DNA from: Escherichia coli
GTDB taxonomy: Bacteria > Pseudomonadota > Gammaproteobacteria > Enterobacterales > Enterobacteriaceae
NCBI RefSeq assembly: GCF_017348835.2
Contig: NZ_CP071375.1
Strand: one strand, 5' to 3'
DNA length: 64,000 nucleotides
In this document: positions 52,508 to 55,042 of the stretch, piece by piece
How positions within the stretch are numbered: the stretch's first letter is position 1
Layout: every line of letters begins with the position of its first letter
Made by a program: the position numbers and the translations under genes
The notes under the pieces: generated by a model
What the model saw: the letters and a program-made list of their open reading frames with translations, nothing else
Database searches by the model: none
Told to the model about the DNA's origin: nothing

Positions 52508-55042
52508 ATGGCCGGGAATGACCGCGAGCCAATTGGACGCAAAGGGAAACCGACGCGTCCGGTCAAACAAAAGGTAAGCCGTCGTCGTTACGAAGATGAC
52601 GATGATTACGACGATTATGATGACTATGAGGATGAAGAACCGATGCCGCGCAAAGGTAAGGGCAAAGGCAAAGGGCGTAAGCCTCGTGGCAAACGCGGCT
52701 GGCTATGGCTGCTGTTAAAACTGGCTATCGTTTTTGCCGTGCTGATCGCCATTTACGGCGTTTATCTCGATCAAAAAATTCGTAGCCGTATTGATGGCAA
52801 GGTCTGGCAACTGCCTGCGGCAGTTTATGGTCGAATGGTCAACCTTGAGCCAGACATGACCATCAGCAAGAACGAGATGGTGAAGCTGCTGGAGGCAACA
52901 CAGTATCGTCAGGTGTCGAAAATGACCCGTCCTGGCGAATTTACTGTGCAGGCTAACAGCATTGAGATGATCCGCCGTCCGTTTGATTTTCCGGACAGCA
53001 AAGAAGGGCAGGTGCGTGCGCGTCTGACCTTTGATGGCGATCATCTGGCGACGATCGTCAATATGGAGAACAACCGTCAGTTCGGTTTCTTCCGTCTTGA
53101 TCCGCGTCTGATCACCATGATCTCCTCACCAAACGGTGAGCAGCGTTTGTTTGTGCCGCGCAGTGGTTTCCCGGATTTGCTGGTGGATACTTTGCTGGCG
53201 ACAGAAGACCGTCATTTCTACGAGCATGATGGGATCAGTCTCTACTCAATCGGACGTGCGGTGCTGGCAAACCTGACCGCCGGACGCACGGTGCAGGGAG
53301 CGAGTACGCTGACGCAACAGCTGGTGAAAAACCTGTTCCTCTCCAGCGAGCGCTCTTACTGGCGTAAAGCGAATGAAGCCTACATGGCGCTGATCATGGA
53401 CGCGCGTTACAGCAAAGACCGTATTCTTGAGCTGTATATGAACGAGGTGTATCTCGGTCAGAGTGGCGACAACGAAATCCGTGGCTTCCCGCTGGCGAGC
53501 TTGTATTACTTTGGTCGCCCGGTAGAAGAATTGAGCCTCGATCAGCAGGCGCTGTTAGTCGGTATGGTGAAAGGAGCGTCCATCTACAACCCGTGGCGTA
53601 ACCCGAAACTGGCGCTGGAGCGACGTAATCTGGTACTGCGTCTGCTGCAACAGCAACAGATTATTGATCAAGAACTCTATGACATGTTGAGTGCGCGTTC
53701 GCTGGGTGTTCAGCCGCGCGGTGGGGTGATCTCTCCTCAGCCAGCCTTTATGCAACTGGTGCGTCAGGAGCTTCAGGCTAAATTAGGCGATAAGGTAAAA
53801 GATCTCTCCGGCGTGAAGATCTTCACTACCTTTGACTCGGTGGCCCAGGACGCGGCAGAAAAAGCCGCCGTGGAAGGCATTCCGGCACTGAAGAAACAGC
53901 GTAAGCTGAGCGATCTGGAAACCGCGATTGTGGTCGTCGACCGCTTTAGTGGTGAAGTTCGTGCGATGGTCGGAGGTTCTGAGCCGCAGTTTGCGGGCTA
54001 CAACCGTGCGATGCAGGCGCGTCGTTCGATTGGTTCCCTTGCAAAACCAGCGACTTATCTGACGGCCTTAAGCCAGCCGAAAATCTATCGTCTGAATACG
54101 TGGATTGCGGATGCGCCAATTGCGCTGCGTCAGCCGAATGGCCAGGTCTGGTCACCGCAGAATGATGACCGTCGTTATAGCGAAAGCGGCAGAGTGATGC
54201 TGGTGGATGCGTTGACCCGTTCGATGAACGTGCCGACGGTAAATCTGGGGATGGCGCTGGGGCTGCCTGCGGTTACGGATACCTGGATTAAACTGGGCGT
54301 ACCGAAAGATCAGTTGCATCCGGTTCCGGCAATGCTGCTGGGGGCGTTGAACTTAACGCCAATCGAAGTGGCGCAGGCATTCCAGACCATCGCCAGCGGT
54401 GGTAACCGTGCACCGCTTTCTGCGCTGCGTTCGGTAATCGCGGAAGATGGCAAAGTGCTGTATCAGAGCTTCCCGCAGGCGGAACGCGCTGTTCCGGCGC
54501 AGGCGGCGTATCTGACACTATGGACCATGCAGCAGGTTGTACAACGCGGTACGGGTCGTCAGCTTGGGGCGAAATACCCGAACCTGCATCTGGCAGGGAA
54601 AACAGGGACTACCAACAATAACGTAGATACCTGGTTTGCGGGCATTGACGGCAGTACGGTGACCATCACCTGGGTCGGCCGTGATAACAACCAGCCGACC
54701 AAACTGTATGGTGCCAGCGGGGCAATGTCGATTTATCAGCGTTATCTGGCAAACCAGACGCCAACGCCGCTGAATCTTGTTCCGCCAGAAGATATTGCAG
54801 ATATGGGCGTGGACTACGACGGCAACTTTGTTTGCAGCGGTGGCATGCGTGTCTTGCCGGTCTGGACCAGCGATCCGCAATCGCTGTGCCAGCAGAGTGA
54901 GATGCAGCAGCAGCCGTCAGGCAATCCGTTTGATCAGTCTTCTCAGCCGCAGCAACAGCCGCAACAGCAACCTGCTCAGCAAGAGCAGAAAGACAGCGAC
55001 GGTGTAGCCGGTTGGATCAAGGATATGTTTGGTAGTAATTAA
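52508..55042 (+). CDS. mrcB: bifunctional penicillin-binding protein 1B (glycosyltransferase/transpeptidase)
   Basis: ATG at 52508 gives [22 protein letters not shown]... (844 aa); acidic [15 protein letters not shown] and basic [16 protein letters not shown] tracts; Gln-rich C-terminus. Confidence 0.95.

Follow-up and report, generated by a model that had tools for sequence, protein, structure and literature searches.

Paired in-frame starts and adjacent acidic and basic tracts at the N-terminus of PBP1b, the product of the known dual-start gene mrcB of Escherichia coli

PBP1b, one of the major peptidoglycan synthases and a target of beta-lactams, exists as two isoforms, between which general wall synthesis and the strengthening of the division septum are divided. 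In the window, which is the whole 64-kb stretch of E. coli DNA analysed here, the gene for PBP1b encodes an acidic tract and a basic tract close to its N-terminus, and an in-frame ATG lies between them. The question raised by this locus is whether this ATG serves as a second start codon and what the two tracts contribute to the resulting proteins. The two-start isoforms of PBP1b and their functional difference are established and already published biology. Since the isoforms were described in 1984-85 and their functional difference in 2001 and 2026, the present finding adds no new biology, but it does confirm that a real dual-start gene can be recovered from raw sequence by unaided reading. 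What we add is small and comes from sequence comparison, namely a survey of the start codon and its upstream GAGG across 81 species and a comparison of the N-terminal tails in the wider family.

The coding sequence at 52508-55042 on the plus strand is E. coli mrcB (ponB), and it encodes full-length PBP1b alpha of 844 amino acids followed by a stop codon, as shown by DNA identity and by matches in NCBIfam, Pfam and the PDB. The 1-kb stretch around the dual-start site is 100% identical in E. coli PE164 and F2_81 and was found in 5424 of 5426 complete E. coli genomes. In PE164, the matching DNA is annotated as mrcB, "bifunctional glycosyl transferase/transpeptidase", and is flanked by hrpB and fhuA. 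The product scored 1733 bits over residues 1-843 against the PBP1b equivalog NF007061 (cutoff 1120) and 1247 bits against the PBP1b equivalog model TIGR02071 (cutoff 718). The PBP1_TM family (PF14812) covers residues 1-79. A single N-terminal transmembrane anchor at about residues 65-87 (52700-52768, plus strand) was read directly as a hydrophobic stretch following a basic flank of charge +10. The LpoB-docking UB2H domain (PF14814, residues 113-197), to which the PDB fragment 6FZK also matches, lies between this anchor and the glycosyltransferase domain (GT51, PF00912 Transgly, residues 209-379). The catalytic glutamate is E233, and EDRHFYEH at residues 233-240 fits the GT51 motif EDxxFxxHxG. 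The transpeptidase domain (PF00905, residues 473-714) contains SLAK at residues 510-513, corresponding to the SxxK motif with S510, and KTG at residues 698-700. The protein is nearly identical to those of PDB entries 3VMA, 3FWL and 5FGZ, and it differs from the crystallised K-12 sequence by S397P, D591E and V782I. The crystal constructs start at residues 53-58, just before the anchor, so the two-start region is absent from them.

The intergenic region between hrpB and mrcB diverges more between strains. Much of this divergence stems from an imperfect GC-rich palindrome of about 85 nt at 52330-52415, about 90 nt upstream of the mrcB start, whose outer arms of 10 nt are perfect (CCCTCTCCCT and AGGGAGAGGG). 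Its folding energy is -54.4 kcal/mol (z = -4.5). The palindrome is a dispersed E. coli repeat present in 4124 of 5426 genomes, at a median of 3 places each and mostly at 80-90% identity. It carries no RefSeq annotation and has no match in Rfam, and we take it to resemble intergenic repeats of the E. coli BoxC class.

Direct reading of the N-terminus confirmed the two adjacent tracts that the first-pass annotation had pointed out. The acidic tract comprises residues 28-44 (52589-52639, plus strand), and its 17 residues consist of 13 Asp or Glu and 4 Tyr, giving a net charge of -13. The basic tract comprises residues 48-64 (52649-52699, plus strand), contains 10 Lys or Arg, 6 Gly and 1 Pro, and abuts the membrane anchor. 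Both tracts belong to the region originally noted at 52560-52690, although its end falls short, since the basic tract reaches 52699, 9 nt further. Given an Asp/Glu frequency of 0.096 in the rest of PBP1b, the probability of at least 13 such residues in 17 is about 1e-10. When we counted 17-residue windows with at least 10 Asp or Glu in all six-frame ORFs of at least 100 amino acids in the 64-kb stretch (31,925 windows), only one unrelated tract at 18024-18074 was found besides mrcB. This tract, on the minus strand, is an Asp/His tract (IDWDDDDHDHHHHDDDD) within a 618-aa ORF, the C-terminal part of which contains about 4 tandem copies of a unit of about 23 amino acids similar to ARERIQSASPEQRQAVREKMQTN; the ORF is presumably yacH-like. 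In PBP1b, the charge alternates along the tail, with +8 for residues 1-27, -13 for residues 28-44 and +10 for residues 45-64. The complete cytoplasmic tail of the alpha form thus carries a net charge of +5 over 64 residues, and a protein starting at residue 46 would carry +10 over 19 residues.

In order to follow these features beyond E. coli, we scanned one genome per species and obtained 80 Enterobacteriaceae mrcB loci, which together with the window gave 81 sequences. One of them (L055, CACSKA010000010.1) is labelled "Chryseobacterium sp. 18061", but its mrcB is enterobacterial and shares the first 100 residues without any difference with "Citrobacter sp. 18056", a genome of the same study; the assembly is probably mislabelled or contaminated. 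The first 14 residues of the PBP1b encoded in the window (N-pep, 52508-52549, plus strand) include R6, P8, I9, G10 and R11; N-pep is identical in 64 of the 81 sequences and shows 1-2 substitutions in the others. The acidic segment varies in length from 10 to 19 residues and contains 9-16 Asp or Glu, and 8-10 Lys or Arg lie between it and the membrane anchor in 81/81 sequences. Two Escherichia lineages (L006 and L007) have shorter DYD repeats, which leaves their acidic tract 1 or 3 residues short of that of the window, and their GK repeat lacks one GK unit (2 residues). Slippage within repeats of the codons GAT/GAC/TAT and AAA/GGC could account for this in-frame length polymorphism.

We then compared the tail with those of more distant relatives, using residues 1-250 as the query of a HMMER search against 1.84 billion cluster representatives. 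Full-length PBP1b relatives elsewhere have tails of mostly 10-50 residues, which are rich in Lys and Arg and contain almost no acidic residues. Four divergent sequences (P0008, P0026, P0030 and P0119; 49-63% identity) begin with M[AS]G[ND] and also bear an acidic tract, behind which a Met or Val and then a basic stretch are often found; these sequences probably come from other Enterobacterales families. The alpha-type extension was met in close relatives only, consistent with the distribution described by Navarro et al. 2026, who found N-pep homologues confined to Enterobacteriaceae. Since the tails in the wider family are mostly short, basic and similar to that of the gamma form, the alpha extension looks lineage-specific, and it may have been added in one lineage ahead of a gamma-like ancestral N-terminus.

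These comparisons bear on the possibility that both tracts are codon repeats which are prone to slippage, neutral and devoid of a function of their own, and that only the N-terminal peptide and the anchor matter. The in-frame indels that separate species, and even the Escherichia lineages mentioned above, would be expected of such repeats, as would the wider-family tails that have no acidic segment at all. However, the acidic and basic character is retained in every one of the 81 Enterobacteriaceae sequences and also in the four divergent sequences at 49-63% identity. In addition, a basic cytoplasmic flank of an N-in anchor fits the positive-inside rule, and the basic tract may accordingly fix the N-in topology of the signal anchor. 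Neutral drift accounts for the variation in tract length but not for the uniform retention of charge over 81 species and beyond, and we regard it as an unlikely explanation of the tracts as a whole.

The alpha form starts at the RefSeq-annotated ATG (Met1, 52508-52510, plus strand), and reading of the sequence places a GGAG Shine-Dalgarno motif 7 nt upstream at 52497-52500. The internal ATG, which had been noted between the tracts, is indeed in frame there as codon 46 (Met46, 52643-52645, plus strand), with a Pro on either side, and among the first 70 codons it is the only in-frame ATG, GTG or TTG besides codon 1. A Shine-Dalgarno-like GAGGA at 52628-52632 (plus strand) derives from the codons of Glu41-Asp42 (GAG GAT) and ends 10 nt before this ATG. 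Its predicted pairing with the 3' end of 16S rRNA is -6.1 kcal/mol, and its spacing of 10-11 nt is long compared with an optimal site. GAGGA may act as the Shine-Dalgarno sequence of the gamma start, and codons of the acidic tract would then also serve as the ribosome-binding site of gamma. The mean probability of unpaired RNA was 0.58 at the alpha start and 0.46 at the gamma start against a regional mean of about 0.48, values which are uninformative. An Rfam search of the leader and the 5' coding region for structured RNAs or riboswitches gave only a chance-level match to MicF, which was rejected (22 bits at E = 0.82, where the gathering score is 79). Six out-of-frame ATGs also arise from GAT-GA(Y) codons within the acidic tract, at 52596-52634 (plus strand, frame +1 relative to mrcB), and one of them, at 52632, directly follows the GAGG motif; we found no evidence for the use of any of the six.

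Among the 81 sequences, the codon at the Met46 position is ATG in 67, GTG in 8 and not a start codon in 6. The GTG sequences belong to Klebsiella (L059 and L062), Silvania, Leclercia, Kosakonia cowanii and Superficieibacter, and in the last the GTG lies one residue upstream. The internal start is replaced by CGY in Kluyvera and a Kluyvera-like genome (L064, L072 and L073), by GCG or ACG in Phytobacter and a Phytobacter-like genome labelled Kosakonia sp. S29 (L079 and L081), and by GCG in Pseudescherichia vulneris (L060). P. vulneris has another in-frame Met, located earlier within the acidic tract. When we looked for GAGG 4-18 nt upstream, it was present in 72 of the 75 sequences with a start codon and in none of the 6 without one, usually as GAG-GAT encoding a Glu-Asp pair of the acidic tract. 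This co-occurrence gave a Fisher P of 2.6e-7, a value which is uncorrected for phylogeny and reflects only three independent lineages of loss. Because the internal start has been lost in 6 of 81 species, the gamma form is not indispensable, and Kluyvera, Phytobacter and Pseudescherichia, which have neither the start codon nor GAGG, would be natural alpha-only variants of PBP1b.

Two further lines of evidence from codon usage were set aside or downgraded. The fraction of the major codon is 0.89 at E41 (GAG) and 0.97 at Y40 (TAT), while across the two-fold codons of the whole gene the median is 0.81 and the 10-90% range extends from 0.57 to 0.98. As the value for GAG falls within this background, selection on the Shine-Dalgarno-like motif is not demonstrated, and synonymous constraint on its codons was dropped as evidence because it is indistinguishable from the rest of the gene. 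Likewise, the observation that all eight Val codons at the Met46 position are GTG is weak evidence of a retained start and no proof of it, because no other Val codon can be reached from ATG by a single mutation; GTG makes up 52-65% of the Val codons in these mrcB genes, and the eight sequences represent only about four independent Val lineages.

The prediction that the internal ATG gives a shorter isoform lacking the acidic tract is supported by published work. As set out in Navarro et al. 2026, Met1 is the start of PBP1b alpha and Met46 that of gamma (Kato 1984; Broome-Smith 1985), and a functional difference between the two was reported by Chalut et al. 2001, as discussed in the same paper. 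Over residues 1-60, the PBP1b encoded in the window does not differ from the K-12 sequence given by Navarro et al., Nat Microbiol 2026. Ribosome profiling with retapamulin (Ribo-RET) detects the internal initiation site of mrcB in E. coli, and the E. coli Ribo-RET study lists three E. coli genes whose internal starts had been characterised before, namely mrcB, infB and clpB. The internal site of Salmonella mrcB was also seen by Ribo-RET, and peptides unique to the long form of Salmonella MrcB were detected (Fijalkowski et al., mBio 2024, PMC11005335). Both experiments suggested by the first-pass annotation, an immunoblot for the isoforms and mutation of the internal ATG, can be found carried out in the literature: the isoforms were detected by immunoblot, and in the M46L variant, mutation of the second start gives an alpha-only protein (Navarro et al. 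2026).

Published work also bears on the suggestion that isoform use tunes the interaction with a cytoplasmic partner. Navarro et al. 2026 reported that alpha, and not gamma, is recruited to and enriched at the septum and that the immobile fraction at the septum is higher for alpha molecules. In their model, N-pep (residues 1-14, with R6 and P8-R11) is predicted to bind FtsA at the FtsZ-binding site, and this interaction was backed by bilayer competition and POLAR assays; in the R6E variant, the septum was no longer protected from osmotic rupture. An alpha-specific partner therefore exists in FtsA, but the binding determinant mapped to date is residues 1-14 (R6 and P8-R11) and not the acidic tract. 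The word "acidic" is absent from Navarro et al. 2026, where the acidic tract is not discussed, and a targeted literature search on the function of this tract gave nothing relevant.

Taken together, it is almost certain that one mrcB mRNA is translated from two in-frame starts to give alpha and gamma, with the alpha extension targeting the enzyme to the divisome through FtsA and gamma serving general synthesis. Initiation at the ATG at 52508 gives alpha, with 844 residues and a 64-residue cytoplasmic tail made up of a basic N-terminal part containing the FtsA-binding residues 1-14, the acidic residues 28-44 and the basic residues 46-64. Initiation at the ATG at 52643, probably directed by the GAGGA of Glu41-Asp42, gives gamma with 799 residues, which retains just the 19-residue basic tail ahead of the anchor and thus shares the basic tract, but not the acidic one, with alpha. 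Both forms have identical periplasmic UB2H, glycosyltransferase and transpeptidase modules. The extension sends part of the PBP1b pool to the divisome via FtsA, and gamma is left for general cell-wall synthesis. The acidic tract may form a disordered, charge-balancing spacer that separates the FtsA-binding peptide from the basic tract next to the membrane.

Other origins of the short form fit the evidence far less well. A separate, shorter transcript from a promoter within the 5' coding region is a formal possibility for any pair of nested proteoforms, and we found no support for it here. A consensus scan of 52200-52800 gave no sigma-70-like promoter on either strand, which is a weak negative, and for internal initiation a correctly placed Shine-Dalgarno-like motif is sufficient; we consider such a transcript very improbable. 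The third band of PBP1b, beta, is attributed to proteolysis of alpha. This precedent, and the expected accessibility of a disordered, highly charged tail to proteases, would favour proteolytic trimming of the full-length protein, with the internal ATG being merely a Met codon, but such trimming is hardly credible for gamma, since Ribo-RET specifically arrests initiating ribosomes and gives a peak at the mrcB internal start in both E. coli and Salmonella, M46L is given as a route to a stable alpha-only protein (Navarro et al. 2026), and the Shine-Dalgarno-like GAGGA precedes the ATG and is lost jointly with the start codon in other genera.

Within the two-start reading, a dual role of the acidic tract could be imagined, which we find doubtful and put forward only tentatively. 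Its purine-rich GAN codons would supply the Shine-Dalgarno sequence (GAG-GAU, codons 41-42) and thereby set the ratio of alpha to gamma, while the encoded segment of charge -13 would serve as an electrostatic spacer, cancelling the charge of the basic juxtamembrane tract and keeping the FtsA-binding peptide away from the anionic membrane. Met46 would then be the ancestral start, Enterobacterales would have acquired the extension in front of it, and the genera without Met46 would make alpha only.

Finally, we compared the locus with known systems. The alpha/gamma pair of K-12 PBP1b is encoded by the same gene and has the same Met1 and Met46 starts, tracts and domain architecture, and the protein of the window differs from it only by strain-level substitutions outside residues 1-60. 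The MrcB pair of Salmonella Typhimurium is an orthologous pair that likewise has an internal in-frame start, and in the published description of its long-form extension, a basic stretch comes first and an acidic one lies between it and the transmembrane anchor (PMC11005335). This extension comprises 42 residues compared with 45 in the window because the Salmonella acidic tract is shorter, and the Salmonella arizonae locus of our survey (L008) has its internal Met at position 43. In infB (IF2 alpha/beta) and clpB (ClpB 95/80), two in-frame starts on one mRNA also give nested proteins. These proteins are unrelated to PBP1b, and what distinguishes the mrcB forms is a 45-residue disordered cytoplasmic tail rather than a folded N-terminal domain. 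The PBP1b tails of other Proteobacteria, such as MPRKPSRRPRKQSAPRRGRVRR and MAARKRRRKGRRKGGRRWK, are short and rich in Lys and Arg and directly precede the single transmembrane segment as in gamma, and unlike alpha, most of these proteins have neither the conserved N-pep nor the acidic tract.
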